Positions 1,796 through 62,294 of a stretch of DNA of 64,000 bases are shown one piece after another. Numbering within the stretch: position 1 is the stretch's first letter; the number at the start of each line of letters is the position of its first letter. Origin of the DNA: Candidatus Komeilibacteria bacterium (GTDB taxonomy: Bacteria; Patescibacteriota; Patescibacteriia; UBA1558; GWA2-36-10); the NCBI GenBank assembly GCA_018656065.1, contig JABHZY010000017.1, positions 20,873-84,872 on the forward strand, given 5' to 3'. A program made the position numbers and the translations under genes. The notes beneath the pieces were generated by a model. The model was not told where the DNA came from. It saw nothing but the letters and a program-made list of their open reading frames with translations, and ran no database searches.

Positions 1796-2476
1796 ATGTC
1801 CAGTTTTAGACAGAAGAAGATAACACGGTCTCAAAATTTAGCAGATAAGTTACGACAAGCTAGGTTAGCTAAAGAAATCAGTTTAGAAGAAGTTGCTGAG
1901 GCCACCAAGATTCAAGTAAAGTATCTAGAAATATTAGAAGAGGGTGATTATCAAAAATTACCAGGAGATATTTATTCCAAAGCCTGGTTAAAGCTCTATG
2001 GAGATTTTTTAGGTTTGCAAGTTAATGAGCTATTAGTGGATTATAAAATAGAGAAATCCATTAGTAATAAATTAACTAAAGTATCTAGTCCAGTTGTTAA
2101 GTCTAATAATATTTCTCTTTATAGTATTCTTAAGCCTAGGGTTTTAAAATTTTTAGGTATAGCTTTATTAATATTGGCATTGTTAGCTTATTTAGGATGG
2201 GAAATTAATAATACTATATCACCTCCAGAAGTAACTATTTTTGAACCAAGTAATAATTTTAAAACTACTGAATCTAGTGTTAATATTAAAGGACAAACTA
2301 AAGCAGAGGTACAGTTGACTATTAATAATGAATTGGTATTATTGGATGAGGAGGGTAAATTTAATCAGTCAATAAATTTGATAAACGGTTTGAATAATTT
2401 GGAGATAAGTGCTAAAAAGAAACATAGTAAAGTAAAGACAATAGAAATTATCATTTTGCGAGAATCATTAGAATAA
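1796..2476 (+). CDS. RodZ-like HTH membrane protein
   Basis: N-terminal Xre-type HTH (LRQARLAKEISLEEVAEATKIQVKYLEILEEGDY), a single TM (FLGIALLILALLAYLGW) and an extracytoplasmic C-terminus. This is a RodZ-type architecture. Confidence 0.6.
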   Translation: MSSFRQKKITRSQNLADKLRQARLAKEISLEEVAEATKIQVKYLEILEEGDYQKLPGDIYSKAWLKLYGDFLGLQVNELLVDYKIEKSISNKLTKVSSPVVKSNNISLYSILKPRVLKFLGIALLILALLAYLGWEINNTISPPEVTIFEPSNNFKTTESSVNIKGQTKAEVQLTINNELVLLDEEGKFNQSINLINGLNNLEISAKKKHSKVKTIEIIILRESLE

Positions 2477-5320: not shown

Positions 5321-5350
5321 CCCCTAGTATACTTGCTAGGGGTGGTTTTT
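5321..5350 (+). terminator. Rho-independent terminator after the racemase gene
   Basis: CCCCTAG (5321-5327) pairs with CTAGGGG (5336-5342), then TGGTTTTT. Confidence 0.7.
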
Positions 5351-5368
5351 ATTAGTATAATATTGAAT

Positions 5369-6793
5369 ATGTCTACAGCTAATAAAATATTCACCAATAC
5401 TCTCTGGCAGGTGATAATTAGGGTTATCAATATTTTGATAGGTGTTTTTTCTTTAGCCTTAATTACCCGTATGTTAGGCAAAGCTGGTTTTGGTTTTTAT
5501 ACTACTATATTTGCTTTTGTGCAGATGTTTGCCATTTTAGCAGATCTAGGTCTTTATATGGCAATGCTTAGAGAAATATCTTCTGTTAAAGATAAAGTTA
5601 GTGAAAATAAAATAATAAATAATATATTTACTATTAGACTAGTATCATCTCTTTTGATGTTGGTTCTAATTCCACTAGTCATTCAATTCTTCCCCTATGA
5701 TCAGGCAGTCAAGACAGGAGTTATATTTTTTATGGGCACATTCTTTTTTCAAACTTTAATTACTACTTTGACAGCAGTTTTTTCCAAAAAATTAGATATG
5801 GCCAAGGTAGCCTTTATAGATTTTGTAAATAAACTTCTTTATGCTGGATTCTTGCTCTATTTATTTTTTTATGGCTTTTCTCTTCATACCATAGTGTTGG
5901 GCAATTCATTCACCATGGGAGTATCATTCATTTTACTTTTATTTTTTATACGGCGACACATTAAATTATCATTAGCTTGGGACTTTAAATACTGGAAGAC
6001 TGTTTGGCATCGTTCTTGGCCTTTAGCTATTACGGTAGTATTAAATTTATTATATTTTAAGGCTGACACTTTAGTATTGTCTGCCTATAAATCTCCAGAG
6101 GAAGTGGGTTTGTATGGTGCTCCCTACAGAGTGCTGGAAGTAATGGCTACATTTCCGCATATGTTTATGTCTCTAATTTTGCCAATCTTTACAGCTAATT
6201 GGGTGGCTAGAAAAATCAAAGACTTAAATGAAAATTTTCAGCACAGTTTTGATTTTTTTAGTATTATAAGTATAGCTATGCTTTTCAGTACCTGGTTGAT
6301 TAGTAGGCCACTGATGATTAAGTTATCTGGAGAAGAATTTGCTGCTTCAGGGCCAATACTAGATGTATTGATTGTTGCTACAGTAGGTATATTTTTTGGA
6401 ACTTTGTTTATTTATATGGTAGTAGCCATTGACGCTCAAAGACAAATGATCAAATACTTTCTTTGGTCAGCTATTGTAGCTTTAATTGGCTATTTCATAT
6501 TTATACCTATTTATTCTTATTGGGGGGCAGCTTATATGACATTAGTTGTTGAGTGGTTGATAGTACTTTTTGCTTGGCGAGTTGTCAAAAAAAATATAAA
6601 CATAAATATCAAGTTGGGTGTTCTATATAAAAGTATCTTTGCAGGAGCTTTTGCTTTTTTAGTAGCCTGGATGTTACGATCATATAATATAGTTTTTACT
6701 TTAGCTCTTGCGCTGTTGTTATATTTTATAATTTTGACTTGGTTCAAAACTATCAGTCGCAAACATCTTAAGCAAATATTTTTAAATAAATGA
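5369..6793 (+). CDS. Polysaccharide/oligosaccharide flippase (MOP/Wzx-like)
   Basis: About 14 predicted TM helices and a Wzx-type N-terminus (NTLWQVIIRVINILIGVFSLALITRMLGKAGFGFY). I chose ATG 5369 because the ORF-track TTG at 5333 lies inside the upstream terminator. Confidence 0.8.
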   Translation: MSTANKIFTNTLWQVIIRVINILIGVFSLALITRMLGKAGFGFYTTIFAFVQMFAILADLGLYMAMLREISSVKDKVSENKIINNIFTIRLVSSLLMLVLIPLVIQFFPYDQAVKTGVIFFMGTFFFQTLITTLTAVFSKKLDMAKVAFIDFVNKLLYAGFLLYLFFYGFSLHTIVLGNSFTMGVSFILLLFFIRRHIKLSLAWDFKYWKTVWHRSWPLAITVVLNLLYFKADTLVLSAYKSPEEVGLYGAPYRVLEVMATFPHMFMSLILPIFTANWVARKIKDLNENFQHSFDFFSIISIAMLFSTWLISRPLMIKLSGEEFAASGPILDVLIVATVGIFFGTLFIYMVVAIDAQRQMIKYFLWSAIVALIGYFIFIPIYSYWGAAYMTLVVEWLIVLFAWRVVKKNININIKLGVLYKSIFAGAFAFLVAWMLRSYNIVFTLALALLLYFIILTWFKTISRKHLKQIFLNK

Positions 6794-8055
6794 TGAATTT
6801 ATTTTTTGCCATTTTATTGATAGGATTTATTTTTCTAAGTTACAGAAAATTACTTTGGGGAGTGGGCGCGGTGATAGTTTTATTACCAGCCTATCTTTGG
6901 CGTTTTGATATTTTAGGACTGCCAACTACTTTTTTAGAGTTGTTGATAGTTTCTTTATTTATAATTTGGCTGATCAAAGAAAAAAAATATACTAAAATAA
7001 ACTTTTCTTTACAAAAAAACTCTAATAATCAAGTTCCTAAAATTTTAAGATACTTATTAGGCCTGTGGTCATTGGCAGCTATCTTGGCCTTGCTAACAAA
7101 TTTTAGCTATTCCTCTTTAGGCTTGTGGCGAGCTTATTTTTTGGAGCCTCTAATGTTCTTCCTAGTTTTTATTTATACGGTTAAGGATAAAAAAGATTGG
7201 AAAGTAATTATAAATTCTCTGGGTTTGTTATTGGCCTGGTTATTTACCGTTGCCATGTATCAGAACTTTACAAATTGGAATTATATTAACGCTTATAATT
7301 TTCCTAATGTTAAAAGATTGACTGGGCCCTTTGCCTATCCTAATGCACTTAGTTTAATTACAGCGCCACTGACAGCTTTATTTGCCGGCCTCTGGATTTA
7401 TACTAAAGATAAGTTATTAAATTGGCATTATTTAATATTATTTATTTTTGGCGTATCTTTAGCAATTATGACTGTTAGCCAGGGGGCTATTTCAGCTATT
7501 GGGTTTGCACTATTTTTAGCTCTAATATTAGCCAAAAAAATAAGAAAAATAGGCATTTCTATTATAGTCTTGGGATTAATTAGTATTCTTTTAGTATTAC
7601 CAAGTATAGACATTAATCCAGAGTTAAATTTACAATCTAGCTCCCTAGACATTCGTCTTAATCAATGGCAAGAGACTAGTGATTTGCTAGCGGACAATTT
7701 TTTATTAGGGGTTGGTTTAAATGGATACCAGGCTGCTCTACAAAATTATCATCAAACAGAATGGTTAGAGATTTATTTATATCCACATAATATATTTTTA
7801 AATTTTTGGACAGAGATGGGCATATTTGGCTTATTGGTTTTTGTAAGCTTATTAGTATACGTAGTCTTACTGTTAAAAAATTTATTTAAGAATAAAAATA
7901 ATTTAGCTTGGCCATTAGCTATGATGTGGGTGACTTGGTTTATACATGGTTTAGTTGATGTGCCTTATTTTAAAAATGATTTAAGTATTTTATTTTTTAC
8001 AATGCTAGTTTTTACTTTAGTAGTTTCTAAATATAAAAAAGATGTCAAAAGCTAA
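6790..8055 (+). CDS. O-antigen ligase / Wzy_C-family membrane protein (WaaL/PglL-like)
   Basis: Polytopic membrane protein with the Wzy_C-type segment GVGLNGYQ...YPHNIFLNFWTEMGIFGL. Its start overlaps the upstream stop as ATGA. Confidence 0.75.
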   Translation: MMNLFFAILLIGFIFLSYRKLLWGVGAVIVLLPAYLWRFDILGLPTTFLELLIVSLFIIWLIKEKKYTKINFSLQKNSNNQVPKILRYLLGLWSLAAILALLTNFSYSSLGLWRAYFLEPLMFFLVFIYTVKDKKDWKVIINSLGLLLAWLFTVAMYQNFTNWNYINAYNFPNVKRLTGPFAYPNALSLITAPLTALFAGLWIYTKDKLLNWHYLILFIFGVSLAIMTVSQGAISAIGFALFLALILAKKIRKIGISIIVLGLISILLVLPSIDINPELNLQSSSLDIRLNQWQETSDLLADNFLLGVGLNGYQAALQNYHQTEWLEIYLYPHNIFLNFWTEMGIFGLLVFVSLLVYVVLLLKNLFKNKNNLAWPLAMMWVTWFIHGLVDVPYFKNDLSILFFTMLVFTLVVSKYKKDVKS

Positions 8056-8662
8056 TAAAATATTTTTTTATCCATCTAGCCTAGTTTTAGTTTTAGTGAA
8101 TCTAATTCCTTTGTTAGGAGTGTTATTTTTAGGTTGGGATGTATTTTCAATTATTATTTTGTATTGGATGGAATCAGCTGTAATTGGATTTTTTAATATT
8201 TTAAAAATGCAGAAGATAAATAATTATAAATTTACTCCTCTGTTACCATTTTTTATAATGCATTATGCAATTTTTATGTTTGTGCATTTATCTTTTATAA
8301 TAAATTTTTTTCAACCAAATTTACAACCAGCCTCAGATCAACTAGAGGCCCTTGTAATAATTTGGCAATATTTTAGAAGTATATTTATTTCCTTGTTTCT
8401 TATATTTTTGAGTCACGGGCTTTCATTTATATATAATTTTATAAAAAGAGAGGAATTTAAACATATTAGTATAAAACAACAAATGTTTATTCCCTATAGA
8501 AGGATTATAATAATGCATCTTGTGATTATGTTAGCTGGAGCAGGAATTATATACCTTGAATATGATAAAGCAGTTTCAGCTATAGTTTTTTTAGTGATTT
8601 TAAAGATAATTTTTGACTTAGGTTCTCATATCTTTGAACATCGTAAAAATATTTTGAATTAA
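8042..8662 (+). CDS. Polytopic membrane protein, unknown function
   Basis: Has 5-6 hydrophobic helices and overlaps the upstream gene by 14 nt. No motif recognised. Confidence 0.6.
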   Translation: MSKANKIFFYPSSLVLVLVNLIPLLGVLFLGWDVFSIIILYWMESAVIGFFNILKMQKINNYKFTPLLPFFIMHYAIFMFVHLSFIINFFQPNLQPASDQLEALVIIWQYFRSIFISLFLIFLSHGLSFIYNFIKREEFKHISIKQQMFIPYRRIIIMHLVIMLAGAGIIYLEYDKAVSAIVFLVILKIIFDLGSHIFEHRKNILN

Positions 8663-8701
8663 GCCATTTACATATAGTTAAAATTTTAGTATAATATACA
8701 C

Positions 8702-9565
8702 ATGAAAAAAGTTAAAAAAGCTATAGTCGCAGTAGCAGGGTCAGGTACAAGATTATTGCCAGCTACTAAGTCTATGCCAAAGGAGATGCTGCCTATTGTA
8801 GATAAGCCGGCTATTCAATTAGTAGTTGAAGAATTAGTGGCTGGTGGCATTGAAGATATTATTCTTGTTACAAAATGGGATAAAAAACCCCTAGAAGATC
8901 ATTTTGATCATTCTTGGGCTCTTGAATACGAATTAGCTCAAGCAGGCAAGAAAGAAAAATTAGCTGAAGTTAAAAAAATCTCAGAAATGGCTAATTTTAT
9001 ATACGTCAGACAAAAAGGGCCTTATGGGAATGGCACCCCAGTTTTATCTGCGGCTAGTTTAGTCCAAGATGAGCCTTTTTTATATGTTTGGGGGGATGAT
9101 TTAGTTAAATCTAAGATATCTTTTACTAAACAGATGATCGATGATTATAATAAGACTGGCCATTTAATGATTGGTGTACAACAAGTTGCTCGTAATCAAG
9201 TTGATAGATATGGGATCGTTAGTCTTAAGGATAAAAAAACTATGCAATTAGATGGTATTATTGAAAAACCATCTATCCAAGAGGCTCCTTCTCGTTTAGC
9301 AGATTTTGGCCGTATGATATTGAATCAAGAAATTGTAGACGTGCTTAAAAAAACTAAATTAGGCAAAGGTAAAGAACTTTGGATAGTAGATGCTATTCGT
9401 GATTATATAAAAGCAGGTGGTGATTTTTACGCCAAGGAAGTTCAAGATGGAGAATGGCTAACTACCGGAGACCCTTTGAATCTACTTAGAACAAATTTAG
9501 AATACGCTCAAGACAGACCAGAGCTTAAAAGGTTTTTGAAAAAATATCTTAAAACATTAAAATAA
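8702..9565 (+). CDS. galU: UTP-glucose-1-phosphate uridylyltransferase
   Basis: N-terminal AVAGSGTRLLPATKSMPKEMLPIVDKPAIQ and GalU-like length. Confidence 0.9.
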   Translation: MKKVKKAIVAVAGSGTRLLPATKSMPKEMLPIVDKPAIQLVVEELVAGGIEDIILVTKWDKKPLEDHFDHSWALEYELAQAGKKEKLAEVKKISEMANFIYVRQKGPYGNGTPVLSAASLVQDEPFLYVWGDDLVKSKISFTKQMIDDYNKTGHLMIGVQQVARNQVDRYGIVSLKDKKTMQLDGIIEKPSIQEAPSRLADFGRMILNQEIVDVLKKTKLGKGKELWIVDAIRDYIKAGGDFYAKEVQDGEWLTTGDPLNLLRTNLEYAQDRPELKRFLKKYLKTLK

Positions 9566-9575
9566 TTTTTCTCGA

Positions 9576-10958
9576 ATGCTTGTCAAAAAAAGGATAAAAA
9601 TATTTACACTACTTATGCTAATGATATTTGTTATTAGCTCAGGTTTTGGTTGTAAATGGAATCCTTTTAAAAAAGATCCAGCTTCTTATGATAAAGTTAC
9701 TCTAGAATATTGGGGAGTTTGGGATACGCCCGGGCAGTTAAAGGCTTTAATGGCTGATTATAATACTAGTCATCCTACTATAAAAGTTAAATATAAAAAT
9801 TTTAGATATGATGAGTATGAAAGGAAGTTATTAGAAGCCTGGGCTGATGATAGGGGGCCAGATATTTTTGCCATACCTTCGACTTGGCTTAAAAGCTACC
9901 AGCATAGGATAGAACCAATGCCTAAAACTCATAAAATTCCAGTATATGAATTACAAGGCAGTATTAAAGAAGAGCTAGTTATAGTTTTGAAAAGCTTTAA
10001 GGGTTTATCCCCACAAGACGTAAAAAACCAATATGTGACAGTAGTCTATGAGGATGTGATTTTAGATGGTAAGGTTTATGCTTTGCCATATTATCTTGAT
10101 ACTTTAGCAACATTTTATAATATTGACTTACTTACTCAAGCTGGTATTCCAGAGCCAATGGATGATTTTTTTGACCTAGTTGAACAAGTTCCAAAACTTA
10201 CTAAAGCCACTGATAGTAATAGGATAATCCAATCAGCTGTAGCTTTAGGAGGTACAGATAATATACCAAGATTTTTTGATATATTTTCTAGCATTATGTT
10301 ACAAAATGGTGTAAAGGCAGATGGTAAAAGATTTAAGCCTATGGAAGATAAGGAGTCTGCTACTAGGTTAGTACAAGCTTTTAATTTTTATACTGATTTT
10401 GCTAGACCAGGTAAGGCTAGTTATAGTTGGAATGCTGAGGCAGAAGATGCTTTAGAGATGTTTGCCGGTGGTAGATTGGCTTATATGTTTGGCTATAGTT
10501 ATCACGCTGATCAACTGAGAGATAGGAATTTACAATTTGATTGGGATATAAAAAATTTCCCACAAACTAGGGGTGCTAGCGGAACTAAATATTACGCAGA
10601 TTACTGGGTGAATGTAGTATCTAAAAAATCAGACAGCGTTGACGCAGCTTGGAATTTTATTCAAAGCACGGCTGCTGCTGATAAAGTTAATATATATCTA
10701 AAAGCTAATAAAAGACCAACGGCTCTCAGATCATTAATTGATAAGCAACTTAATGATTATGAACTAGCTACCTTTGCTTCTCAAGTTTTGACAGCTGATA
10801 ATTGGTATAACGGTTATAATATTTCCTTAGCTGAAAAATTTACAGCTGAGATAATCGATGGTCTTGTATCTGGCGAGTTGATAATGGACAAAGAAGCTAC
10901 GCCGATCAATTTATTTGTTAATAAAATTAATCAAACTTATGTACCGCCTAATAACTAA
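9576..10958 (+). CDS. Extracellular solute-binding lipoprotein (ABC sugar-binding family), orphan
   Basis: Signal peptide ending in the lipobox-like SSGFGC, with SBP_bac_1-like length and composition. No permease or ATPase gene is adjacent. Confidence 0.7.
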   Translation: MLVKKRIKIFTLLMLMIFVISSGFGCKWNPFKKDPASYDKVTLEYWGVWDTPGQLKALMADYNTSHPTIKVKYKNFRYDEYERKLLEAWADDRGPDIFAIPSTWLKSYQHRIEPMPKTHKIPVYELQGSIKEELVIVLKSFKGLSPQDVKNQYVTVVYEDVILDGKVYALPYYLDTLATFYNIDLLTQAGIPEPMDDFFDLVEQVPKLTKATDSNRIIQSAVALGGTDNIPRFFDIFSSIMLQNGVKADGKRFKPMEDKESATRLVQAFNFYTDFARPGKASYSWNAEAEDALEMFAGGRLAYMFGYSYHADQLRDRNLQFDWDIKNFPQTRGASGTKYYADYWVNVVSKKSDSVDAAWNFIQSTAAADKVNIYLKANKRPTALRSLIDKQLNDYELATFASQVLTADNWYNGYNISLAEKFTAEIIDGLVSGELIMDKEATPINLFVNKINQTYVPPNN

Positions 10959-11580
10959 AATTTTATTTGTTGCTTTTTTATTTATCCTACTTCCTCAGAT
11001 AGCGCAGGCAGGATTTATGGATGATATAGCATATTGCACAGCTAATGGATCTTGTAATTTTGAAGATGCAGCAGCCGGCCTTAATTCACTTATTAAATTA
11101 TTATTAGGCATGATGGGCGCTGTGGCTTTATTATTTTTTGTATGGGGCGGTTTACAGTGGCTTACATCTGGCGGTAGTGCAGAGAGAGTAAATAGAGGTA
11201 AGCAAATAATGATAAATACAGTTTTTGCTATTATTTTAGCTTTTGGTTCTTACATATTAGTAAGTTTTTTCGTCAACGATGTTTTAAATGTTGAAGATAA
11301 TTTTCAAATCCAAGAAGGCCCATTTACGGGCTGTAATGAAATGCCAATTTTTACAGATTGCGGAGACAACAAGCAATGCGGAGCAGGATTTCCAGCTCCT
11401 TGGGAACATTTAAATAATAGTTGTGTATATATTTGCGAGATTCATAGTGTGTTGCTTAGTGGAGGCACTAGAGGTGGGAAATGTGTAGGTGTGTTGTTAG
11501 AGGGGTCGGAAGTAGTTCCTGGCTGGGATAGTAGTTGGTGTCCAGCTACTCAAACTTGTGCTTATCCACCGCCAAATTAA
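10939..11580 (+). CDS. VirB2/TrbC-like (T4SS-pilin family) protein with a Cys-rich C-terminal extension
   Basis: Signal peptide (..PQIAQA), TM1, conserved loop WLTSGGSAERVNRGK, TM2, then about 100 aa containing 8 Cys. Start ATG 10939 is in frame within the ORF-track ORF. Confidence 0.75.
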   Translation: MYRLITKILFVAFLFILLPQIAQAGFMDDIAYCTANGSCNFEDAAAGLNSLIKLLLGMMGAVALLFFVWGGLQWLTSGGSAERVNRGKQIMINTVFAIILAFGSYILVSFFVNDVLNVEDNFQIQEGPFTGCNEMPIFTDCGDNKQCGAGFPAPWEHLNNSCVYICEIHSVLLSGGTRGGKCVGVLLEGSEVVPGWDSSWCPATQTCAYPPPN

Positions 11581-11605
11581 GCTTAATAAATTATTTTCAA
11601 ATATT

Positions 11606-11941
11606 ATGTTAAAAAAAATTATATTATTTATTCTCTTGTTTATTCCAAATATGTCTAAAGCTGCGGAAGATCACAGAGTGCCTTTGCCGAATCCAATAAA
11701 GGCAGACAATATACAAGAATTGTCAGGATATATGATTAGGGGCTTATTGGGTGTTAGTGGTGCTATAGCTTTATTTATGCTAGTTTGGGGCGGCATAGTA
11801 TGGATGACCTCAAATGGTAATGCCGAGAGACTTAAAAAAGGGAAGGATACTATTTTATGGGCCATACTAGGTTTAATAATTATCTTTACAAGTTATATAA
11901 TTATTAATTTCCTATTTACTATTATTGGTGGAAATGCATAA
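11606..11941 (+). CDS. VirB2/TrbC-like (T4SS-pilin family) protein
   Basis: Signal peptide and two TM helices flanking WMTSNGNAERLKKGK. Start ATG 11606. Confidence 0.75.
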   Translation: MLKKIILFILLFIPNMSKAAEDHRVPLPNPIKADNIQELSGYMIRGLLGVSGAIALFMLVWGGIVWMTSNGNAERLKKGKDTILWAILGLIIIFTSYIIINFLFTIIGGNA

Positions 11942-11958
11942 TATCTGTGAATAAAAAA

Positions 11959-11987
11959 TTGTAAAATTATTATTTTTGTTCTATAAT
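11959..11987 (+). promoter_or_regulatory. Sigma70-like promoter for the third pilin gene
   Basis: TTGTAA (11959-11964), 17-nt spacer, TATAAT (11982-11987). It is followed by a strong SD AAGGGGG before ATG 12025. Confidence 0.45.
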
Positions 11988-12024
11988 TTAATTAAATTTA
12001 CTATATTTGAAAGGGGGTGAAAAA

Positions 12025-12384
12025 ATGAAAAAAATACTTATTTCTTTAATGGTTTTAGCACCTAGCATGGCTAGTGCTCAAACTAATCTTGACAGTTGGG
12101 GATATAATGATTTCTCTGAGAGTAATATCGCTTTAGGCTCAAAGGATCTTAAAGAAACAATTGGTGGTGTTATTAACATTATCTTAGGTTTCTTAGGAAT
12201 TTTAACAACTTTGATTATTTTAATGGGTGGTTTCAAATGGATGACTTCTCAAGGTAATACTGAAAAAGTTGACGAAGCTAAAAAGCTTATCGGTGCTGGT
12301 ATCGTCGGTTTAGTAATCATATTAACAGCTTACGCTGTATCTAGATTCGTATTAAGCGAATTATATGCACAAACTGTTGAATAA
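12025..12384 (+). CDS. VirB2/TrbC-like (T4SS-pilin family) protein, likely the major subunit
   Basis: Signal peptide (..SMASAQ) and two TM helices flanking WMTSQGNTEKVDEAKK. It has its own promoter and the strongest SD in the array. Confidence 0.8.
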   Translation: MKKILISLMVLAPSMASAQTNLDSWGYNDFSESNIALGSKDLKETIGGVINIILGFLGILTTLIILMGGFKWMTSQGNTEKVDEAKKLIGAGIVGLVIILTAYAVSRFVLSELYAQTVE

Positions 12385-12481
12385 TCATTATGTAATGATT
12401 TAATTTATATATGTAGTCTAGACTATAGTAGGTTATACTAATAATAACCTACTAGAGCTTACACTATATGCCAAAAACAAA

Positions 12482-12856
12482 ATGAAATTTCAAAAATACA
12501 AATTAACTTTATTGTCATTATTATTTACTCCTCTAGCAGTTTTAGCAGCAGACATTGTTGGACAGGCAGAACTTCGAGAAGCTGCTACGATAGCTAAGTT
12601 TGGTATGGAAACAGACGTCTACGTAATTGCTACTAGATGGATTAATGGTTTTCTGTCTATATTTATGATGGTGTTTACTTATTTTGTAATCTCAGCCGGC
12701 TTTATGTGGATGACTTCTGGGGGGAATGTAGAAAAGGTATCAGCAGCCAAGGCCACTTTAAAAAATGCTTTAATTGGTTTGATAGTTGCTCTAACCGCTT
12801 ATTCTTTAGCTAGGTATGTAATGTTAGCCCTAGGTCAAACTACCGGCATTGCTTAA
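12482..12856 (+). CDS. VirB2/TrbC-like (T4SS-pilin family) protein
   Basis: Signal peptide (..LAVLAA) and two TM helices flanking WMTSGGNVEKVSAAK. Confidence 0.75.
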   Translation: MKFQKYKLTLLSLLFTPLAVLAADIVGQAELREAATIAKFGMETDVYVIATRWINGFLSIFMMVFTYFVISAGFMWMTSGGNVEKVSAAKATLKNALIGLIVALTAYSLARYVMLALGQTTGIA

Positions 12857-12869
12857 TAATTTTAATTTT

Positions 12870-12896
12870 AAAACCCCGTTAGGGGTTTTTTTATTT
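12870..12896 (+). terminator. Rho-independent terminator ending the pilin array
   Basis: AAACCCC GTTA GGGGTTT followed by a T-run. Confidence 0.8.
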
Positions 12897-12934
12897 TTGT
12901 TCAAATTAAAATATTATATGCTATAATTAATTGA

Positions 12935-14746
12935 ATGCTGAAAATTTTTAAAAAACATAGTAATAAAATACTTTGGATATCAATCTTTATCTATATTTTA
13001 TTATTTTCTTTTCTAAGTTTAAAAAAATATTATGCTTTTGGTTATAATGCTTTTGACTTAGCTATTTTTAATCAAGTCTTTTTTAATACTCTCGATGGCA
13101 GATGGTTTGAGATGACGATTAATCTTAATAGTTATTTGGCAGATCATTTTACGCCAATAATAATTTTATTATTGCCTGTATATAAATTATGGCCCAGAGC
13201 AGAGACTTTACTTATTCTACAGAGTATAGTATTGGGGTTATCAGCTTGGCCTCTTTATAAAATTAGCAGGCATGTAAAAAAGAATAGTTTATTTGCTTTA
13301 AGTATCGCCTTATTATGGCTAGTAAATCCTTTTGTTCATAATGCTAATGTTTTTGAATTTCATTTGTTGCCTTTAGCTGTGTTTTTCATTTTTTGGACTT
13401 TCTATTTTTACCAAAAGGATAGTTATAAGCTTTTTATATTATTTTTAGTACTTAGTTTATTAGTTAGAGAAGATATTGCTTTAATACTCGTTGGATTTTT
13501 TCCTTTGGCTTTTTTTGAAAAAAGAAATCTAAAATGGAAAATAATAAGTATTATATTACCAGTTGTTTATTTTCTTTTTAGTATTAGCCTGGTATCTTCT
13601 TTTTCGGGGGGAGCTTATAAATTCGTTATATATTATTCATGGTTAACTAATATCTTTAGTCAGCCTATTAGTGTTTTAGCTAAAATATTTTCTTTATCAA
13701 ATATTTTTAATTTTAGTTTTGTTTTTTTGCCATTATTGTTTATTCCTTTTTTGCGGGCTCGTTATTTATTTTTATCTTTACTGCCTTTACTACAATTTGT
13801 GTTATCTTCCACTGGTTTTTACTCGGTAATTTATAATAGTCATTATATTTTATTATTATTGCCAGGCATATTTATATCTTTTATTTTTGCTTTCTCTCGG
13901 ATAGATAAGCAAAAAATTATTTATAATAATAAAAACTTTTTTAATTTAATATTTTTATTTACAGTAATATATTTTTTAATATTTTCATCTCCTATTAAAA
14001 ACTTTTTTAATAATACCATTTCTAAAGACCATATTAAAGAGAAATTTATTACTTATATCGACAAGGGGGCTAGCTTAGTCACAGACTTATCCATAGCTTC
14101 ACAACTTAGCAATAGGCAAGAAATATACCCTCTACATTATACTTATTTTGCCAAAGGACAGTTTGGTAATAAGGACTTTAATTTACCGTCAGTGGATTAT
14201 ATTTTAATAGATTATAGTAATTTTTTTGATATTTTAGTGGATTTAGAATCTCGGCCAGAGCGCAGTATAGATAATCCAGCTAGTAACTTTAGAAATATAC
14301 TAGCCAATTATTATTTGGTAGAGGCTAGAAATAATATGTTTTTATTTAGTGCTCAAGCAGGGAAAAACAACTATCCTCTTTATGAACTAGGCCCTGAGTC
14401 TAGTGCTTCGGTCGGTGATAATTTAGTTGATGATTATAAATTAGAGAAAAAAGATAATTTAAATACTTTAAAAATAAATTTTAAAAAAACACACAGTGAT
14501 AATAAATATCTAGTGCGTTTTTATAAAGATGATTCTTACTTTGACTTACCCTTAGATTATGGCTTATGGCCAATGGATGAATGGCCAGAGGATTATCCAA
14601 TTAGTTTTTATTATTATTTATCTGACAATGTTAATTCTTGGCAAATATTTTCTTGGCAGGGTGATAATAAGTTAGGGTATATTAGAGAATTGGCGGTAGA
14701 TATGGATGTTTCTCCAATTACAAGTGTTATTTTATTGAATAATTAA
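12935..14746 (+). CDS. DUF2079-family polytopic membrane protein (copy 1)
   Basis: N-terminal YYAFGYNAFDLAIFNQVFFNT signature, many TM helices and a C-terminal soluble domain. It is a full-length paralog of 24394-26223. Confidence 0.75.
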   Translation: MLKIFKKHSNKILWISIFIYILLFSFLSLKKYYAFGYNAFDLAIFNQVFFNTLDGRWFEMTINLNSYLADHFTPIIILLLPVYKLWPRAETLLILQSIVLGLSAWPLYKISRHVKKNSLFALSIALLWLVNPFVHNANVFEFHLLPLAVFFIFWTFYFYQKDSYKLFILFLVLSLLVREDIALILVGFFPLAFFEKRNLKWKIISIILPVVYFLFSISLVSSFSGGAYKFVIYYSWLTNIFSQPISVLAKIFSLSNIFNFSFVFLPLLFIPFLRARYLFLSLLPLLQFVLSSTGFYSVIYNSHYILLLLPGIFISFIFAFSRIDKQKIIYNNKNFFNLIFLFTVIYFLIFSSPIKNFFNNTISKDHIKEKFITYIDKGASLVTDLSIASQLSNRQEIYPLHYTYFAKGQFGNKDFNLPSVDYILIDYSNFFDILVDLESRPERSIDNPASNFRNILANYYLVEARNNMFLFSAQAGKNNYPLYELGPESSASVGDNLVDDYKLEKKDNLNTLKINFKKTHSDNKYLVRFYKDDSYFDLPLDYGLWPMDEWPEDYPISFYYYLSDNVNSWQIFSWQGDNKLGYIRELAVDMDVSPITSVILLNN

Positions 14747-14810
14747 TAAAAAAGAGGTATCATAAATGTATTATATTTGGGTATAATATGGTAATTAACT
14801 TATTAATTTT

Positions 14811-15758
14811 ATGGATTTAAGTGTAGTCATTCCTTTGTACAACGAAGAAGAATCATTGAGGCCATTAAATAAAATTTTAAAAAATGTGCTCGGTAAGTTG
14901 AATGTTAAATATGAAATTTTATATATTGATGATGGTTCAAGAGATGAGTCAGTAAAAATTTTAAAAGAGATTTCTTCTAATGATAAGCATGTAAAAGTAA
15001 TAGAATTAAAAAGAAATTTTGGTAAATCAATTGCCTTAGCTGTTGGTTTTGATAAATTAGTGGGTGATTTAGTTATTACTATGGATGCTGATTTACAAGA
15101 TGATCCAGAGGAAATACCAAAATTGATCGAGCAAATAGAAAAGAATTACGACCTTGTATCTGGTTGGAAATACAAAAGAAAAGATCCTTTAGTTAAGATA
15201 TTGTCGTCTAAAATTTTTAATTTTACTGTATCTTTACTCTCAGGCTTAAAAATTCATGATTTTAATTGTGGCTTCAAGATTTATAGAAAAGAGGTAGTAA
15301 AAAGTATAGAACTTTACGGAGAATTACATAGATTTTTACCTTTTTTAGCTTATCAGCAAGGTTTTAAGGTGGGAGAGATAAAAGTAAAACACAATGTTCG
15401 TCAATTTGGAGAGTCAAAATATGGTCGTTCTGGTTTAAAAAGGTTAAGTAATTATATTTTAGATCCTATCAATGTGGTTTTTTTAACTAAATATCAAAGA
15501 AAGCCAGCTCATTTTTTTGGGAATATAGGGCTTATCTCTTTTGCGATTGGCTTACTAATATCAATATATTTGACCGTTATCTGGTTTATGGGGCAAGGTA
15601 TTGGAAATAGACCATTACTTTTTTTAGGAGTATTACTTATGATCATAGGTATACAATTAGTATCAATGGGGTTTTTAGGGGAGTTGATTGTCAGAGAAAA
15701 TATATCAAAAAGCAAAGATAAGTATGTCAAAAAACATGATAAAGAATTGGTGGAATAA
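14811..15758 (+). CDS. GT2 polyprenol-phosphate glycosyltransferase (DPM1/ArnC-like)
   Basis: Motifs VVIPLYNEEE and DADLQDDPEE (DxD), plus two C-terminal TM helices. Confidence 0.9.
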   Translation: MDLSVVIPLYNEEESLRPLNKILKNVLGKLNVKYEILYIDDGSRDESVKILKEISSNDKHVKVIELKRNFGKSIALAVGFDKLVGDLVITMDADLQDDPEEIPKLIEQIEKNYDLVSGWKYKRKDPLVKILSSKIFNFTVSLLSGLKIHDFNCGFKIYRKEVVKSIELYGELHRFLPFLAYQQGFKVGEIKVKHNVRQFGESKYGRSGLKRLSNYILDPINVVFLTKYQRKPAHFFGNIGLISFAIGLLISIYLTVIWFMGQGIGNRPLLFLGVLLMIIGIQLVSMGFLGELIVRENISKSKDKYVKKHDKELVE

Positions 15759-17088
15759 TATAAAAGAAGATAAGCATAAGCGCCGCGTAGTGTTGGCTTT
15801 TTTTCTTTTGGCTTTTTTTCTTATTTTATTTACGGAACCTTACTTTAATACTTATAATGTAATTTCTAGATATTTAACAATAGAATCTATAGTAGAAGAT
15901 GGGGATTTTATTATAGATGAAAGACATCAAGCTACGGGTGATAAAATTTATAGAGAGGGGCATTATTATTCTTCTAAGCCACCAATTTTGTCTGTTGCAG
16001 CCTCTTCAATTTATTATATTACTCATAATTTTTTTGGACAGGATTTTCCAGAAACTGGCATAAATACTAGATCTGAATATTTTCATTCTATATATCCTAC
16101 GGTGTATGTTGCTAATTTGATTTTTGTAGGTTTGCCATTTTTATTTTTACTTTTTTATTTTTATAAAACTCTCAAACTTTTTTATATTAAAAGTAGATAC
16201 CATTTACCTCTTATTTTAGGTTTGGGCTTAGGTAGTTTGTTATTTACTTACTCCGTGACTTTTAATAATCATGTTATAGCTGGTAGTTTGTTATTTATAG
16301 GGTTTTATTATTTATTATTAATAAAAAAATTCAATTATAAGTTTGATGACATAAATAAATATCTTTTTCTGTCAGGACTTTTTACCAGTTTATCAGCGGT
16401 GATTGATTTGCCTACGGGCCTTACTTTTTTTGCTTTATTTTTTGTTTATTTTTTTCTAAAACTTGGATTTAGAAAAATATTATATTATATAGGACCTGCC
16501 TTAATAATATTTTCTTTACATTTATATTTTAATTATCAAGCTTTTGGAGGTTTTCTACCAGCCCAAGCCTATGAGGATTATTGGATAGGGCCAGATGGCG
16601 AGCTTGTCTTGATACATTTTTTTAGAGATCATAGTTGGTATACATTATTGTTTAATATTTTTATTGGTACTAATGGTTTTTTTATTTATACTCCATTATT
16701 ATTACTACCTTTGTATAGTATTTATAAAATTATTAAAGAAAAATCAGAGTTTATTTGGGAAGCTTTAATGATAGTATTTGGATTTATAATTTTAATTCTT
16801 TTTTATATAAACCTTGCCAAAGACTATGGGGGTGGTGCATATGGCTATAGATGGTTTATAGCTATCACACCTTTATTTTACTTTTTTATTATATTTTTAT
16901 TCAAAAAAACGCTCAGTGCAAAAATGAGCACTGTTTTTACTATTTTACTTTTATGGTCATGTATAGTGGCTATTATAGGTGTTTTTGATCCTTGGCCTCA
17001 GAGTCTTAGGTTTGATATTTTTGGGACACTTTTTCCAGTTCCACCACTTTGGGTGGCCTTAGGTTTAGATTATTCTTTTTTATACTAA
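15724..17088 (+). CDS. GT-C fold membrane glycosyltransferase (ArnT/PMT_2-like)
   Basis: Polytopic, with a first-loop motif YREGHYYSSKPPIL resembling the KPPL loop of the ArnT/GT39-83 families. The start is uncertain (15724 or 15736). Confidence 0.6.
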   Translation: MSKNMIKNWWNNIKEDKHKRRVVLAFFLLAFFLILFTEPYFNTYNVISRYLTIESIVEDGDFIIDERHQATGDKIYREGHYYSSKPPILSVAASSIYYITHNFFGQDFPETGINTRSEYFHSIYPTVYVANLIFVGLPFLFLLFYFYKTLKLFYIKSRYHLPLILGLGLGSLLFTYSVTFNNHVIAGSLLFIGFYYLLLIKKFNYKFDDINKYLFLSGLFTSLSAVIDLPTGLTFFALFFVYFFLKLGFRKILYYIGPALIIFSLHLYFNYQAFGGFLPAQAYEDYWIGPDGELVLIHFFRDHSWYTLLFNIFIGTNGFFIYTPLLLLPLYSIYKIIKEKSEFIWEALMIVFGFIILILFYINLAKDYGGGAYGYRWFIAITPLFYFFIIFLFKKTLSAKMSTVFTILLLWSCIVAIIGVFDPWPQSLRFDIFGTLFPVPPLWVALGLDYSFLY

Positions 17089-18653
17089 ATAATTTTATAA
17101 ATTATAGTTTCGCTGTCTTGAAAAACCTCAATTGCATTTTGGTCTATTGTAAGATTACGCATTAAATTACCATGAGTTGATTTTTCTACAAATATGTAGT
17201 TAGCCCTAAAATCTTCTTTTATATATTTAGAAACATCATATAAAATATTACCATAGTTTATTTCTCTGTATAGGGTGTGTATTTGTGAATCGTAATTTTC
17301 CATAAAAGTTGGATCTAGGCCAACTATGTAATAATTTTGGTCATTATGATAGAACAAAACTGGCCACTCATCCCAATCACTATGAAAAATTACAGATCTT
17401 GGTTCGGTATTATTAGCTAGCCAAACGGCGGCATCTTTATATTTGTCCGTAGAATACGCATCAGATAGTTTTACATGCAATATTCGTTCATAAGTAATAG
17501 GCATAATTAAGATTAAAAGCATTAGTGTAGAAGTGCCCAGATATATCTTTAGTTGTTTTGATAAGCTATGCCAGGCTTTTTTTAATTTTGTTACATTAAC
17601 AAAGCTTTTGATATCTTTACTAGCGCTAGCTACAAAAAGTAACGTGAAAGGCATATAATATTCTACATATCTTTGTGACTTGGCGGTTAGAATTATAAAA
17701 ATCATGGCCATTATGAAAGAAAACCAAGTTAAACGACTGATTTTTTTTATTTGAAAAAACAAAATTAAGAAACAAATAGATCCAGCTATAAAAAGGTGTG
17801 GTGCTGATGATATTATTTTTGTTATGCTTACGCCATACCATTCACCGCCTACGGTAAATTGGTTTCCCATATTCACTACGCCAATTTGTAAAAATTGTTG
17901 GTAATAAAGGTATAGATTTTGCGGCCAGTATGGATTTATTAACACGCCTAATCCAAGTCCAATTAAAAGGTATGAAGATATTTTGAGAGTTGGTTGGGGT
18001 TTTTTGTGGAGAGCAAATAAATGTAGAGTTTGATGCCAGAATATTTTGAATTTGTTAACATGTATTTTTTGGTATATTTTATGAGCTAGTAGATATACAC
18101 CTAATATTAATATAGCTAGTGGCCATCCGCCATAGAGCCAGACAAATAAAAAACCCAGCACTAGAGCTAAAATATTTTTTTTCTCAAATAAAGCATAAAT
18201 AATAAGCCAGATTATTAATATAGAAAGACTATTAGCTTTAATTAGTGACACTCTAAAATTTAGACCATTAAGTAATAAAAATCCCAAGGCAAAATAAAAA
18301 GCCCCAGGAATATACATTTTTTTCAGTAACCAATAAAATCCCAAGACCATTAAAACAGAAAAAATTACAGCAGATATTTTTACGCCTATCAGAGGATCAA
18401 AAAAATATGTAAATGGAACTAATAACAGGTGATAAAGTAAGTGATGATCAGTAAAGCTATCCCGCAGACTAGCAAACTGCATCCAAGGTAGACTTTCTAT
18501 TAATCTGCCCTCACTTAGCCATTTAGCTAATTTAGCATGATAAAAACCATCTGGGTCACCAATAAAGTTATTCCACTGTATTTGACCATAAAAGACTGAC
18601 ATTATGATAGTCAGCCATAGGTATTTCCAATCCCATTTTTTTGATTTTGTCAT
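17085..18653 (-). CDS. GT-C fold membrane protein with an STT3/AglB/PglB-like signature
   Basis: Polytopic. First loop GDPDGFYH (DxD-like). After the last TM, SVIFHSDWDEWPVLFYHNDQNYYIVGLD resembles the SVVVTWWDYGYPVRYYSD..VDGG region of PglB. Confidence 0.55.
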   Translation of the reverse strand: MTKSKKWDWKYLWLTIIMSVFYGQIQWNNFIGDPDGFYHAKLAKWLSEGRLIESLPWMQFASLRDSFTDHHLLYHLLLVPFTYFFDPLIGVKISAVIFSVLMVLGFYWLLKKMYIPGAFYFALGFLLLNGLNFRVSLIKANSLSILIIWLIIYALFEKKNILALVLGFLFVWLYGGWPLAILILGVYLLAHKIYQKIHVNKFKIFWHQTLHLFALHKKPQPTLKISSYLLIGLGLGVLINPYWPQNLYLYYQQFLQIGVVNMGNQFTVGGEWYGVSITKIISSAPHLFIAGSICFLILFFQIKKISRLTWFSFIMAMIFIILTAKSQRYVEYYMPFTLLFVASASKDIKSFVNVTKLKKAWHSLSKQLKIYLGTSTLMLLILIMPITYERILHVKLSDAYSTDKYKDAAVWLANNTEPRSVIFHSDWDEWPVLFYHNDQNYYIVGLDPTFMENYDSQIHTLYREINYGNILYDVSKYIKEDFRANYIFVEKSTHGNLMRNLTIDQNAIEVFQDSETIIYKII

Positions 18654-20086: not shown

Positions 20087-21571
20087 ATGCCAAAGAAATT
20101 AAAAATAGTATCAATTGCTTCAGAAGTTGATCCATATTCAAAAACAGGTGGATTAGGTGATGTGGCCAGATCTTTACCAAAATCTTTAACTAGGCTAGGT
20201 AATAAGGTTATTATTATTACGCCTTTTTATAAAAAATTTATTGATCGTAAAGCTCATAAACTAGAAAAGATTTATAGTGATGTTAGTCTTCATATTGATA
20301 AAAAAAATGAAGTGAAAGTTGCCTATTACCGAGCAGAATTAATGCCAGATTTAGAGGTTTATTTTGTAAGTAATGACAAATATTTTTCTCGTCGTAAAAA
20401 TCTCTATGGTTCTAGTCATGAAAATGCTCGTTTTTATTTATTTGATGTCGCTGCTTTGAAATTAATATCACTTTTAAAATTTAAGGCTGATATTATTCAT
20501 TGTCATGATTGGCATGCTGGACTTATTCCATACCTTAAGAAAACTCGTTTTAAAAAAAGTCAGACCTTAGCTAAAGCAGCTACAGTTTATACTATTCATA
20601 ATATGGTTTTCCAAATGGGCCAGGCTTGGTGGGAAGTGCCACTAAAGAAAAAAGACAAAGGTATAAAAGGTCTACCTTTATTTCATGACCCCAATATAGA
20701 ATATATAAATTTTGCTAAGCGAGGGATATTAGAAGCCGATGTTATTAATACAGTGTCAGAAACTTATGCTGAAGAAATACTAAATAAGAGCTTCGGCCAA
20801 GATTTGCATAGGGTTTTGAAAAATCGTAAGCATAAGTTATTTGGTGTGGTAAATGGAATTGACTATAAAGATTTTAATCCCAAGAATGATCCTAGTATTT
20901 ACAAAAATTATGATCATAAAAATATTAAACGCAAAAAAGAAAATAAAAAATATATACAAAAATTATTTAAACTACCAGTTAATGAAGATGTTCCGATTCT
21001 TTGTAGCACTTCTAGGATTGCATTTCAAAAAGGCTTTGATTTGATACTGAAAATCATCTATCAACTAATGCGTTTTGATTTGCAGATTATTATCATAGGT
21101 AGTGGGGACAAAAATTATATAAAAGAGCTTAAAAAAGTGGCTAAGAAATATCCAGAAAAGTTGGCCATCATACCATCTCATGAAAAAAATCAAAAATATG
21201 AGACTCAAGTTTATGCTGGTTCTGATTTATTACTACTGCCTTCACATTATGAACCTTGTGGTATTAATCAAATGAAGAGTTTTCGTTACGGTTGTGTGCC
21301 GATTGTTAGAAATACTGGAGGGCTTAGTGATACAGTAATTAATTTTGAGCCAGGCAGTAAAAAAGGCAATGGTTTTACTTTTAAAGATTATAATGAAAAA
21401 GAATTATTGATTGCAATTACCAGAGCTTTAGAAACATTTAAATATAAAAAAGTTTGGCGAGATTTAGCCTGCCGAGGCATGAAACCATCATTCTCTTGGG
21501 AGCTACCCGCTAAAAAATATATTCAACTATATAAGAAAGCAATAAAATTTAAAAAAGAAAATGGTAAATAA
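20087..21571 (+). CDS. glgA: Glycogen/starch synthase (GT5), copy 1
   Basis: N-terminal SKTGGLGDVARSLP, CHDWHAG, and C-terminal EPCGINQM..RNTGGLSDTV. Confidence 0.85.
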   Translation: MPKKLKIVSIASEVDPYSKTGGLGDVARSLPKSLTRLGNKVIIITPFYKKFIDRKAHKLEKIYSDVSLHIDKKNEVKVAYYRAELMPDLEVYFVSNDKYFSRRKNLYGSSHENARFYLFDVAALKLISLLKFKADIIHCHDWHAGLIPYLKKTRFKKSQTLAKAATVYTIHNMVFQMGQAWWEVPLKKKDKGIKGLPLFHDPNIEYINFAKRGILEADVINTVSETYAEEILNKSFGQDLHRVLKNRKHKLFGVVNGIDYKDFNPKNDPSIYKNYDHKNIKRKKENKKYIQKLFKLPVNEDVPILCSTSRIAFQKGFDLILKIIYQLMRFDLQIIIIGSGDKNYIKELKKVAKKYPEKLAIIPSHEKNQKYETQVYAGSDLLLLPSHYEPCGINQMKSFRYGCVPIVRNTGGLSDTVINFEPGSKKGNGFTFKDYNEKELLIAITRALETFKYKKVWRDLACRGMKPSFSWELPAKKYIQLYKKAIKFKKENGK

Positions 21572-22718: not shown

Positions 22719-22721
22719 ATT

Positions 22722-23789: not shown

Positions 23790-23790
23790 T

Positions 23791-24369: not shown

Positions 24370-24393
24370 TACAATATTTACATTGTATAAGTT

Positions 24394-26223: not shown

Positions 26224-26278
26224 TAATAATTACTTAAACATCCTTTTTATTAAGGGTGTTTTTTGATATAATAAGTTT

Positions 26279-27124: not shown

Positions 27125-27128
27125 ACAT

Positions 27129-28292: not shown

Positions 28293-28305
28293 ATATAAAT
28301 ATAAT

Positions 28306-29760: not shown

Positions 29761-29764
29761 CCTT

Positions 29765-62132: not shown

Positions 62133-62294
62133 GGTGGATTCCTCCATGGTTACATGTGACGGGAATGACGAAATTGTGTCAAAGCTAGTTGTCAAAGGTG
62201 CAGAACTGATATACTTTAGCATAAATTGTCTACAAGTCAATGTTTATAGCTTAATTATTGACAATAGTATATTTTTAGCTAAAATAAGTAAATC

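Follow-up and report, generated by a model that had tools for sequence, protein, structure and literature searches.

The window analysed here is a 64,000-nucleotide (nt) stretch of contig JABHZY010000017.1 from a Candidatus Komeilibacteria bacterium. Its array region (window positions 9576-12856) consists of five co-directional genes, the first coding for a solute-binding protein (SBP) and the other four for small VirB2-like pilins, here called pil1 to pil4. The linkage between the SBP gene and one adjoining pilin gene is real and strongly conserved among species, and apparently it has been undescribed so far. We propose with moderate confidence that the locus is a chromosomal pilin operon of a Patescibacteria-type type IV secretion system (T4SS), in which pil3 encodes the major subunit and the SBP, anchored in the membrane, binds glycans and acts as a partner of the first pilin. 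Divergent tandem pilin arrays situated far from their machinery are already known (published in 2023 and 2025). The SBP-pilin pair, the fixed order of the paralogues with the expression signals of pil3, and an RNA hairpin behind pil3 appear to be new. The five genes are as follows.

9576-10958, + strand: SBP gene, 460 amino acid residues (aa), stop codon at 10956-10958
10939-11580, + strand: pil1, 213 aa, family PF18895
11606-11941, + strand: pil2, 111 aa, starting 25 nt after pil1, family PF18895
12025-12384, + strand: pil3, 119 aa, family PF18895
12482-12856, + strand: pil4, 124 aa, starting 9 nt after the RNA hairpin, family PF18895

Conservation of the SBP-pilin pair

Pil1 begins within the SBP gene, with an overlap of 20 nt (ATG at 10939), as an earlier note on this DNA had pointed out. 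The conservation of this arrangement was assessed by a pattern scan with one genome per GTDB species, which gave 468 relatives of the SBP. The best 80 of these 468, with SBP identities of 39-81%, were taken together with 10-kb flanks, and 78 of them have enough downstream sequence for assessment (related loci are cited below by number, such as L045). An open reading frame (ORF) recognised by the pilin hidden Markov model (HMM) begins between -85 and +228 nt from the SBP stop codon in 77 of the 78 assessable species loci. The pilin start mostly overlaps the SBP stop or lies no more than 30 nt from it, and overlaps of 4-20 nt are common. The only break, in L045, is a 1.4-kb insertion (7538-8916) between the SBP gene and its pilin gene, which contains an unassigned ORF of 295 aa and a 95-aa ORF that is a candidate AntA-like antirepressor. 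The adjacency is thus kept in related genomes far beyond chance.

The genes on both sides of the pair are more changeable. The upstream neighbour of the SBP gene in 75 related loci is a GalU-like gene (31), ComM (31) or SMC (12). The downstream neighbour that is not a pilin is a RodZ-like gene (38 loci), an uncharacterized protein (13) or a DUF2079 protein (5). These three unrelated upstream families and the differing downstream neighbours indicate that the SBP-pilin pair has survived rearrangements. The larger pilin arrays are found beside the pair, as here, at a distance of 4-5 kb, or elsewhere. The 4.5-kb gap that separates the pair from a six-pilin array in distant loci was considered as a place for hidden T4SS genes; it codes for a RodZ-like helix-turn-helix protein, a methyltransferase, a UPF0102 protein, a family 2 glycosyltransferase (GT2) and an uncharacterized membrane protein, and the candidate was rejected.

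Many SBP-adjacent pilins of the distant group (L038-L088; for example L045:8952-9359) end in an aromatic tail, G(G/E)W(A/S)TSGWF(K/N), which is absent from the array pilins. This tail is a candidate contact site for the SBP.

No published mention of an association between an SBP and a pilin was found, and the terms 'solute-binding' and 'substrate-binding' occur zero times in the main texts of the two papers on Patescibacteria pilin arrays (PMC10633639, PMC12102498).

The solute-binding lipoprotein

The SBP matches the families SBP_bac_8 (PF13416, 2e-23) and SBP_bac_1 (PF01547, 4e-20). The family HMM, an AlphaFold2 (AF2) model based on 52 homologues with a predicted local distance difference test score (pLDDT) of 90.7, and a Foldseek search agree on a two-lobe, MalE-like oligosaccharide-binding fold. 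The top Foldseek matches are oligosaccharide SBPs of ATP-binding cassette (ABC) importers, with 13-19% identity and E-values of about 1e-22, and the neighbours found by structure and sequence search are binders of cycloalternan, maltodextrin, sophoro-oligosaccharides and cello-oligosaccharides. Many aromatic residues are conserved, and the evolutionary rate of the protein is slow, similar to that of YebC or RuvC of the same genomes.

Residues Gly23 and Cys26 of the lipobox are invariant in the 52 homologues, which indicates a membrane-anchored lipoprotein. The suggestion in the earlier note that the SBP could be a tip adhesin is unlikely in view of this membrane anchor. The AF2 model contains a long β-hairpin insertion at residues 118-142 (window 9927-10001), and the protein exceeds the MalE-like structures aligned with it by about 60-70 residues. 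Judging from the model, the β-hairpin is a possible family-specific interaction surface.

The SBP had also been described as lacking a transporter partner nearby, and this is true both here and in its relatives. The precomputed Pfam matches of the 64-kb window include no ABC permease or ATPase. In the 80 related loci, a motif scan for the ABC signature of the ATPase and the EAA loop of the permease, which is cruder than an HMM search, found neither gene within 10 kb of the SBP; the only motif matches were SMC, FtsK and ComM. An SBP gene beside ABC permease genes with the pilins absent, the contrary case which the note had named, was not seen among these relatives.

The pilins and their fixed order

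The T4SS_pilin family PF18895 has a gathering cut-off of 26.6 bits, which each of the four small proteins exceeds, with values of 33.3 for pil1, 44.2 for pil2, 32.8 for pil3 and 34.7 bits for pil4. This supports their assignment to the VirB2-like 'T4SS pilin' family, of which genomes of the Candidate Phyla Radiation have an expanded set. For the TrbC/VirB2 family PF04956, with a gathering cut-off of 27.9 bits, pil2 is barely above the cut-off (28.0 bits) and pil3 is below it (16.6 bits); no match to this family was found for pil1 or pil4. Sub-threshold NCBIfam matches of pil2, pil3 and pil4 are to the 'pilin-like conjugal transfer protein' of mycoplasma integrative and conjugative elements. 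Four tandem genes of low identity agree with the published definition of a VirB2 array, which is at least two pilin genes in tandem or one non-pilin gene apart (PMC12102498). A pilin HMM built from 325 relatives found no copy in the 64 kb beyond these four.

The proteins have a common blueprint of a signal peptide, a first helix, the loop W[ML]TSxG[NS]xE[RK] and a second helix, and the identity of the other pilins to pil1 is 23-34%. The blueprint is as had been described from the first reading, except that the 'GN' of the loop is not invariant, pil1 having GS at this position. A hydrophobic two-helix hairpin with a short polar loop after the signal peptide is seen in the alignment and in the AF2 model of pil1. 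This model, which was built with database homologues, consists of a helix hairpin (residues 41-76 and 81-115) and a small α/β domain (residues 131-213), with pLDDT values of 82-89.

Pil1 is distinguished by two N-terminal Cys residues and a Cys-rich C-terminal domain of about 85 aa, which is predicted to be extracellular. Its orthologues retain the two N-terminal and about eight C-terminal Cys residues, and the C-terminal domain is otherwise variable, with lengths of 85-200 aa. This disulphide-rich domain corresponds to residues 128-213 (window 11320-11580), with orthologues in L010-L037; in L020, L024, L025 and L030 it is longer than 300 aa and has further Cys repeats. Elsewhere in the window, a 406-aa ORF (57061-58281, + strand) has weak, sub-threshold matches to DsbA/thioredoxin at its N-terminus. 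It may be a disulphide oxidoreductase acting outside the cytoplasm and would then be of interest in connection with the Cys-rich pil1.

Where the SBP identity of a species is 55% or more, the genes are found in the order SBP-pil1-pil2-pil3-(pil3-like or pil4). Pil3 is the best-conserved pilin, with 45-82% identity, which is similar to the SBP, and it is duplicated in some species. The positional orthologues of pil2 are 48-70% identical and the orthologues of pil4 30-68%; pil1 and pil4 are the fastest-evolving pilins. In the distant group, each of seven pilin positions has a mean identity across species of 40-57%, above the identity among the paralogues of the window. The order and the positional conservation of the paralogues fit distinct, fixed structural roles better than antigenic variation. 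By their sequences, the pilins are fixed positional orthologues and not variable cassettes. The two closest Komeilibacteria loci, L009 and L011, have no pil1, so this pilin is dispensable there.

Expression signals and the RNA hairpin

The signals of the array, together with the gene that precedes the SBP gene and its promoter-like sequence, are located as follows.

8667-8695, + strand: promoter-like TTTACA-17-TATAAT before the GalU-like gene, 11/12 positions matching
8702-9565, + strand: GalU-like nucleotidyl transferase gene (PF00483, 1e-26), ending 10 nt before the SBP start
11959-11987, + strand: internal promoter of pil3, TTGTAA-17-TATAAT, identified from sequence, -10 region conserved
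12010-12019, + strand: Shine-Dalgarno sequence of pil3, AAAGGGGGTG, before the ATG at 12025
12408-12473, + strand: RNA hairpin element directly 3' of pil3, identified from fold and covariation
12870-12899, + strand: intrinsic terminator closing the array, an 8-bp GC-rich stem (12870-12889) followed by a T run

A promoter-like match means little by itself in this AT-rich DNA, where 31 such matches were found and 20.5 were expected. The spacer between pil2 and pil3 is more informative. In more than 20 species it contains the conserved sequence TTTTGTTyTATAAT and a nearly invariant ribosome-binding site (RBS), GAAAGGGGGTGAAAnAATG. No recognisable RBS was found for the SBP gene, pil1, pil2 or pil4. 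The third gene had been taken as that of the major subunit from its own promoter and the best Shine-Dalgarno sequence; the conservation of pil3, the -10 box and RBS in more than 20 species, and the hairpin at its 3' end support this view. The single terminator after pil4 is likewise as first reported. The GalU-like gene is probably the first gene of the SBP transcription unit, and it may be a member of the SBP/pilin system.

The hairpin element has a length of 65 nt and a folding energy of -22.8 kcal/mol (z = -3.7). A hairpin between the third and fourth genes had been noticed earlier as a 10-bp stem at 12426-12454; it is indeed present, although larger than this. RNAalifold gives an interrupted hairpin of 20 bp, in which 7 pairs have compensatory changes. 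The upper stem shows covariation, and G-U pairs occur in the sense orientation. In the alignment 97.3% of cells are paired, compared with 30-43% for slid partners, and the observed covariation score is reached by no shuffle. The 5' half of the hairpin is an invariant 19-mer, TAGTCTAGACTATAGTAGG, which includes the perfect 12-nt palindrome TAGTCTAGACTA. Such an invariant palindrome suggests a bound protein. The 17-mer GTCTAGACTATAGTAGG is found once in the window and once in each related locus, and twice where pil3 is duplicated.

A covariance model searched against 1.35 Mb finds one copy per locus, only after pil3-type genes, and also detects the element in the more distant L047; the + (sense) strand scores 20-30 bits better. 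The hairpin is found at the same position in L009-L035, L047 and L093-L104. Rfam gives no match at E <= 1 in positions 9000-13500, and at the gathering score the window contains only four tRNAs. The hairpin seems to be an uncatalogued conserved RNA element, apparently undescribed. It may raise the level of pil3 over the downstream pilins through message stabilisation or partial termination.

Two other roles were considered. An intrinsic terminator does not fit, since GCCAAAAACAAAATG, the sequence after the stem, has no T run or U-tract and the element is absent from the terminator scan list. A shufflon or recombination site at the invariant palindrome is ruled out by the presence of only one copy per locus.

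In distant lineages, the first gene of a six-pilin array is followed, at about 100 nt, by two or three tandem GC-rich hairpins (L042, L048-L052, L056-L059, L063, L068 and L082-L088; for example L082:16739-16830). These are unrelated in sequence, equally stable and of two flavours. The later pilin genes in these lineages are packed 0-20 nt apart.

The secretion machinery and published pilin arrays

The window contains no T4SS ATPase or VirB6-like gene, nor do about 8 kb to its left and about 10 kb to its right, in agreement with the earlier note. Counted from the array, the stretch free of T4SS genes extends about 19 kb in the upstream direction and 61 kb in the downstream direction. The FtsK gene at 60-1787 has the FtsK_4TM, alpha and gamma domains and is therefore a true FtsK and not a coupling protein. 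The ORFs 15688-17088 and 17085-18653 were considered as VirB6 candidates and rejected; they look like polytopic GT-C-type proteins beside GT2 and DUF2079 genes, and neither has significant similarity to a 537-aa protein found beside the distant arrays.

The published data place such arrays in a T4SS context. In Southlakia epibionticum, a series of six essential predicted pilins (SEML1_0014-0019) is located inside the T4SS cluster (Wang et al. 2023, Cell; PMC10633639). In 3,035 genomes of Patescibacteria, a search for PF18895 and PF04956 detected VirB2-like pilins in 1,948 VirB4-positive assemblies, near virB4 in 1,135 and not near it in 813, and described 441 arrays of 2-11 genes with a mean identity of about 25% within an array, for which antigenic variation or host-range versatility was proposed (Quinonero-Coronel et al. 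2025, Microb Genom; PMC12102498). Table S1 of that paper gives RIFOXYD1_FULL_37_29, GW2011_GWA2_36_10, GWC2_42_12 and GWF2_45_11 as VirB4-positive members of class ABY1. All four carry the locus described here, and Komeilibacteria RIFOXYD1_FULL_37_29, which is L009, is the closest named relative. For GW2011_GWA2_36_10, Table S3 of the same paper lists TrsD and VirB4 as genes 233-234 and tandem VirB2 hits as genes 464-466, 'not near VirB4'. In Paceibacteria metatranscriptomes, PF18895 pilins are among the most highly expressed genes for secreted proteins (PMC10936435).

Further machinery was found in the relatives. In L091 (an 860-kb contig) and L092, an 818-aa coupling ATPase of the VirD4 type is followed, 2.4 kb further downstream, by pil3-like paralogues. 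This ATPase also shares a contig with the SBP in two cases, a Komeilibacteria genome and the genome of L020. This second locus of close relatives has the order LepA, 143-aa ORF, 160-aa ORF, VirD4-type ATPase, 195-aa ORF, DnaX, pil3-like pilin(s), UppS, with no SBP gene and no copy of the hairpin 17-mer (L091:3163-5619 with the pilin at 8001-8375; L092:2663-5116 with pilins at 7568-8757; and L171). Its unannotated 143-aa, 160-aa and 195-aa ORFs could be T4SS parts.

The published distant arrays and the relatives with VirB4 or VirD4 elsewhere indicate that there is nothing unusual in such an array or in the absence of machinery close to it. The earlier note had inclined to an organelle independent of a T4SS and had named a T4SS locus elsewhere as the finding that would explain the pilins in the usual way. 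From the relatives and the tables of PMC12102498, such a locus largely does so. The relatives with this locus are VirB4-positive, in one of them TrsD and VirB4 are separated by about 230 genes from the tandem VirB2 hits, and a VirD4-type ATPase lies close to pil3-like genes in relatives, all of which speaks against an independent organelle.

The organism also has type IV pilus genes distinct from the VirB2-like array, as indicated by a type IV pilin-like gene (N_methyl) at 45427-45990 on the - strand and a T2SSE/PilB-type ATPase just past the right end of the window (L090:14061-15776).

Proposed function and alternative explanations

We infer filament assembly, subunit stoichiometry and the roles of the hairpin and the SBP as follows. 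The T4SS ATPases and channel genes would be located elsewhere in the genome. A first unit, comprising possibly the GalU-like gene, the SBP gene, pil1 and pil2, is tightly packed, with weak or no RBS and the overlap between the SBP gene and pil1, and would be expected to yield little of the SBP and of two accessory pilins, in approximately equimolar proportion. A second unit, with the conserved internal promoter and a near-perfect RBS, would supply large amounts of pil3 as the major subunit. The hairpin probably protects the pil3 message or limits read-through, and pil4 would be made in smaller amounts before the terminator. Each pilin would be exported by means of its signal peptide, inserted as a two-helix hairpin and polymerised by the distant VirB4-type machinery, with the disulphide-rich domain of pil1 displayed outside. 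The SBP, lipid-anchored on the outer face of the cell membrane and with an oligosaccharide-binding fold, would be the conserved partner of the first pilin. It most likely recognises or captures glycans at the site of host contact rather than feeding an adjacent ABC importer.

Several observations weigh against this proposal. In the closer species the region is syntenic over about 20 kb, so that the adjacency there is partly inherited gene order. A search that started from pil3 gave 28 distinct metagenome loci for which 8 kb of sequence upstream is available; the SBP gene is present at 16 of them and absent at 12, so not every array needs an SBP. The S. epibionticum tables contain no PF01547 or PF13416 protein despite the essential array. 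The Foldseek search of the PDB with the pil1 model gave nothing at E <= 0.001, only generic helical hairpins, and a profile of 48 pilins against PDB sequences gave only spurious matches (designed 'Pizza' proteins) and no solved VirB2 or TraA. To our knowledge, no pilus has been seen in any Patescibacterium. It is important to note that the pair is near-constant from the side of the SBP and not from the side of the pilins. The invariant unit is thus the SBP with one pilin.

These points bear first on an alternative which is possible but rather doubtful, namely that the SBP is the receptor of an ordinary carbohydrate ABC importer with its permease and ATPase elsewhere, and that the adjacency to a pilin gene reflects co-expression or inherited order with no physical or functional link. 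The canonical MalE-like fold, the synteny of the closer species and the many pilin arrays without an SBP are consistent with this, and the glycogen/maltodextrin metabolism encoded in the window (GT5, GH57, GDE_C, ROK kinase and GalT) would make such an importer useful. However, 77 of 78 species keep the adjacency, even where the SBP identity is as low as 39% and although the genes on either side differ, and short overlaps of start and stop codons are common in it. In addition, the genes of CUT1 importers are normally clustered, yet none was found within 10 kb in 80 genomes. If the SBP is nevertheless part of an ordinary importer, the locus is one more pilin array of the published type.

The pair could also represent more than we propose. 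In a new kind of module, the SBP would work with a T4SS-type pilin in place of an ABC permease, so that recognition or capture of host-derived glycans is coupled to the secretion-system pilus on which epibiotic Patescibacteria depend for life on their hosts. We regard this as unlikely at present. If true, it would give a first genetic handle on the idea of nutrient acquisition or host sensing as the purpose of this relaxase-less T4SS, and would add a lineage-specific regulatory RNA controlling pilin stoichiometry.

A further alternative, which appears quite improbable, is that the PF18895 proteins are two-helix membrane proteins and not filament subunits. The SBP and its adjacent pilin-like protein would then form a new SBP-dependent channel or signal transducer, and the other paralogues hetero-oligomeric membrane assemblies. 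Such assemblies would account for an invariant unit of the SBP and exactly one pilin-like gene from which larger arrays can be separate, for the positional conservation of each paralogue, as in a fixed hetero-oligomer, and for the WxTSGWF C-terminal tail common to the SBP-adjacent pilins of the distant group; and no solved pilin was detected by sequence or fold. However, all four proteins pass the PF18895 cut-off and pil2 also that of TrbC/VirB2, the same family occurs inside the essential T4SS cluster of S. epibionticum, pil3-like paralogues are found beside a VirD4-type ATPase, and the expression design of a major subunit suits a polymer.

A multi-subunit surface filament independent of a T4SS with the SBP as tip adhesin, the version of the earlier note, is very improbable: the absence of T4SS genes around the array and the exposed Cys-rich domain of pil1, which could be an adhesin, are in its favour, but the invariant lipobox would hold the SBP at the cell membrane, the relatives with the locus have VirB4, TrsD and a type IV coupling protein elsewhere, and no alternative assembly machinery is present at the locus.

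The operon that we propose is of interest for several reasons. The T4SS with its pilin array is essential in the only genetically tractable Patescibacterium, and the locus bears on what this system transports or senses. The SBP-pilin pair, present in at least 77 species, is a testable lead, comprising a soluble, expressible protein with measurable ligand and partners. The fixed order of the paralogues argues for distinct structural roles over antigenic variation. The hairpin is a compact RNA element for studying how gene dosage is controlled in organisms for which hardly any regulation is known.

Genomic surroundings

The SBP sequence is identical on at least 21 metagenome contigs, and samples containing this organism come from groundwater and wastewater (for example ERZ4200966 and ERZ27237598). 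Pil1 corresponds to NCBI entry HOE19_01950 from a Candidatus Komeilibacteria metagenome-assembled genome (class ABY1), and the RodZ-like gene of the window (1796-2476) was matched to GCA_018651305.1, contig JABIEH010000011.1. The surroundings of the array consist of housekeeping and envelope genes, including FtsK, RecA, a flippase, Wzy_C, the GalU-like gene, DUF2079 and GT2, and further RuvC, a glycogen-metabolism cluster, a penicillin-binding protein, PolA and NusA.

The array is embedded in genes for envelope glycans (5333-8662 and 12935-18653), which code for the flippase, Wzy_C, DUF6498, GalU-like, DUF2079 and GT2 proteins and two GT-C-like membrane proteins. The Wzy_C family includes pilin O-oligosaccharyltransferases. 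A single PF18895 pilin of S. epibionticum, SEML1_0024, is encoded directly beside an STT3/PglB-like protein. Glycosylation of the pilins is a possible conserved link, which we offer as a suggestion from gene context.

A glycogen/maltodextrin-type cluster at 20087-30712 contains two GT5 glycogen synthases, a GH57 protein, a GDE_C/GH100-like protein, a ROK kinase, GalT and a second DUF2079 protein. This cluster bears on the possible ligand of the MalE-like SBP. A 453-aa ORF with a signal peptide and no Pfam match (60879-62240, - strand) has a GC content of 49%, compared with about 31% in the rest of the window, and may have been horizontally acquired. An rRNA as the origin of the GC-rich stretch at 60-62 kb was ruled out; the stretch is a protein-coding ORF.

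Comparison with known systems

The arrays of VirB2 genes in Patescibacteria are the closest known systems. Like the present genes, they are tandem PF18895 genes whose products are structurally alike and about 25% identical, they are chromosomal and often away from virB4, and the published dataset includes ABY1 genomes with this very locus. However, an SBP appears in neither paper (PMC10633639, PMC12102498), and the fixed order of the paralogues, the promoter and RBS of pil3 and the 3' hairpin are not described there.

The conjugative pilins VirB2, TrbC and TraA (PF04956) resemble the present proteins in the signal peptide, the two hydrophobic helices and the short basic loop, and pil2 just passes the threshold of their family. 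In contrast, pil1, pil3 and pil4 do not reach it, and no match to the solved pilins was found. The Gram-negative systems to which these pilins belong differ further, since VirB5, a cyclising peptidase and adjoining machinery are missing here and the present bacterium is monoderm.

Solute-binding proteins recruited to conjugation or to T4SS control are known from PrgZ/TraC of the enterococcal pheromone plasmids and ChvE of Agrobacterium. PrgZ is an OppA-type SBP of family 5, and ChvE binds monosaccharides and passes the signal to VirA. By analogy, the present SBP may likewise be a protein of SBP fold which is encoded with, or acts on, a T4SS and has no dedicated importer of its own. It differs from them in being a MalE-fold protein of families 1 and 8 and in being linked to a pilin gene instead of a regulator.

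In fimbrial and pilus operons, 3' stem-loops set the ratios of subunits, for example after papA in E. coli. The hairpin described here would be comparable in being a stable structure right after the predicted major-subunit gene and before genes for putative minor subunits. It is different in having an invariant 19-mer with the 12-nt palindrome and no U-tract.

The binding proteins of CUT1 importers, such as MalE, GacH, Lmo0181 and CbpB, have the same two-lobe fold and, as is usual in monoderms, a lipoprotein anchor. Their identity to the present SBP is only 13-19%, and its gene, for which the 10-kb surroundings in 80 loci gave neither a permease nor an ATPase, is followed instead by a pilin gene in 77 of 78.

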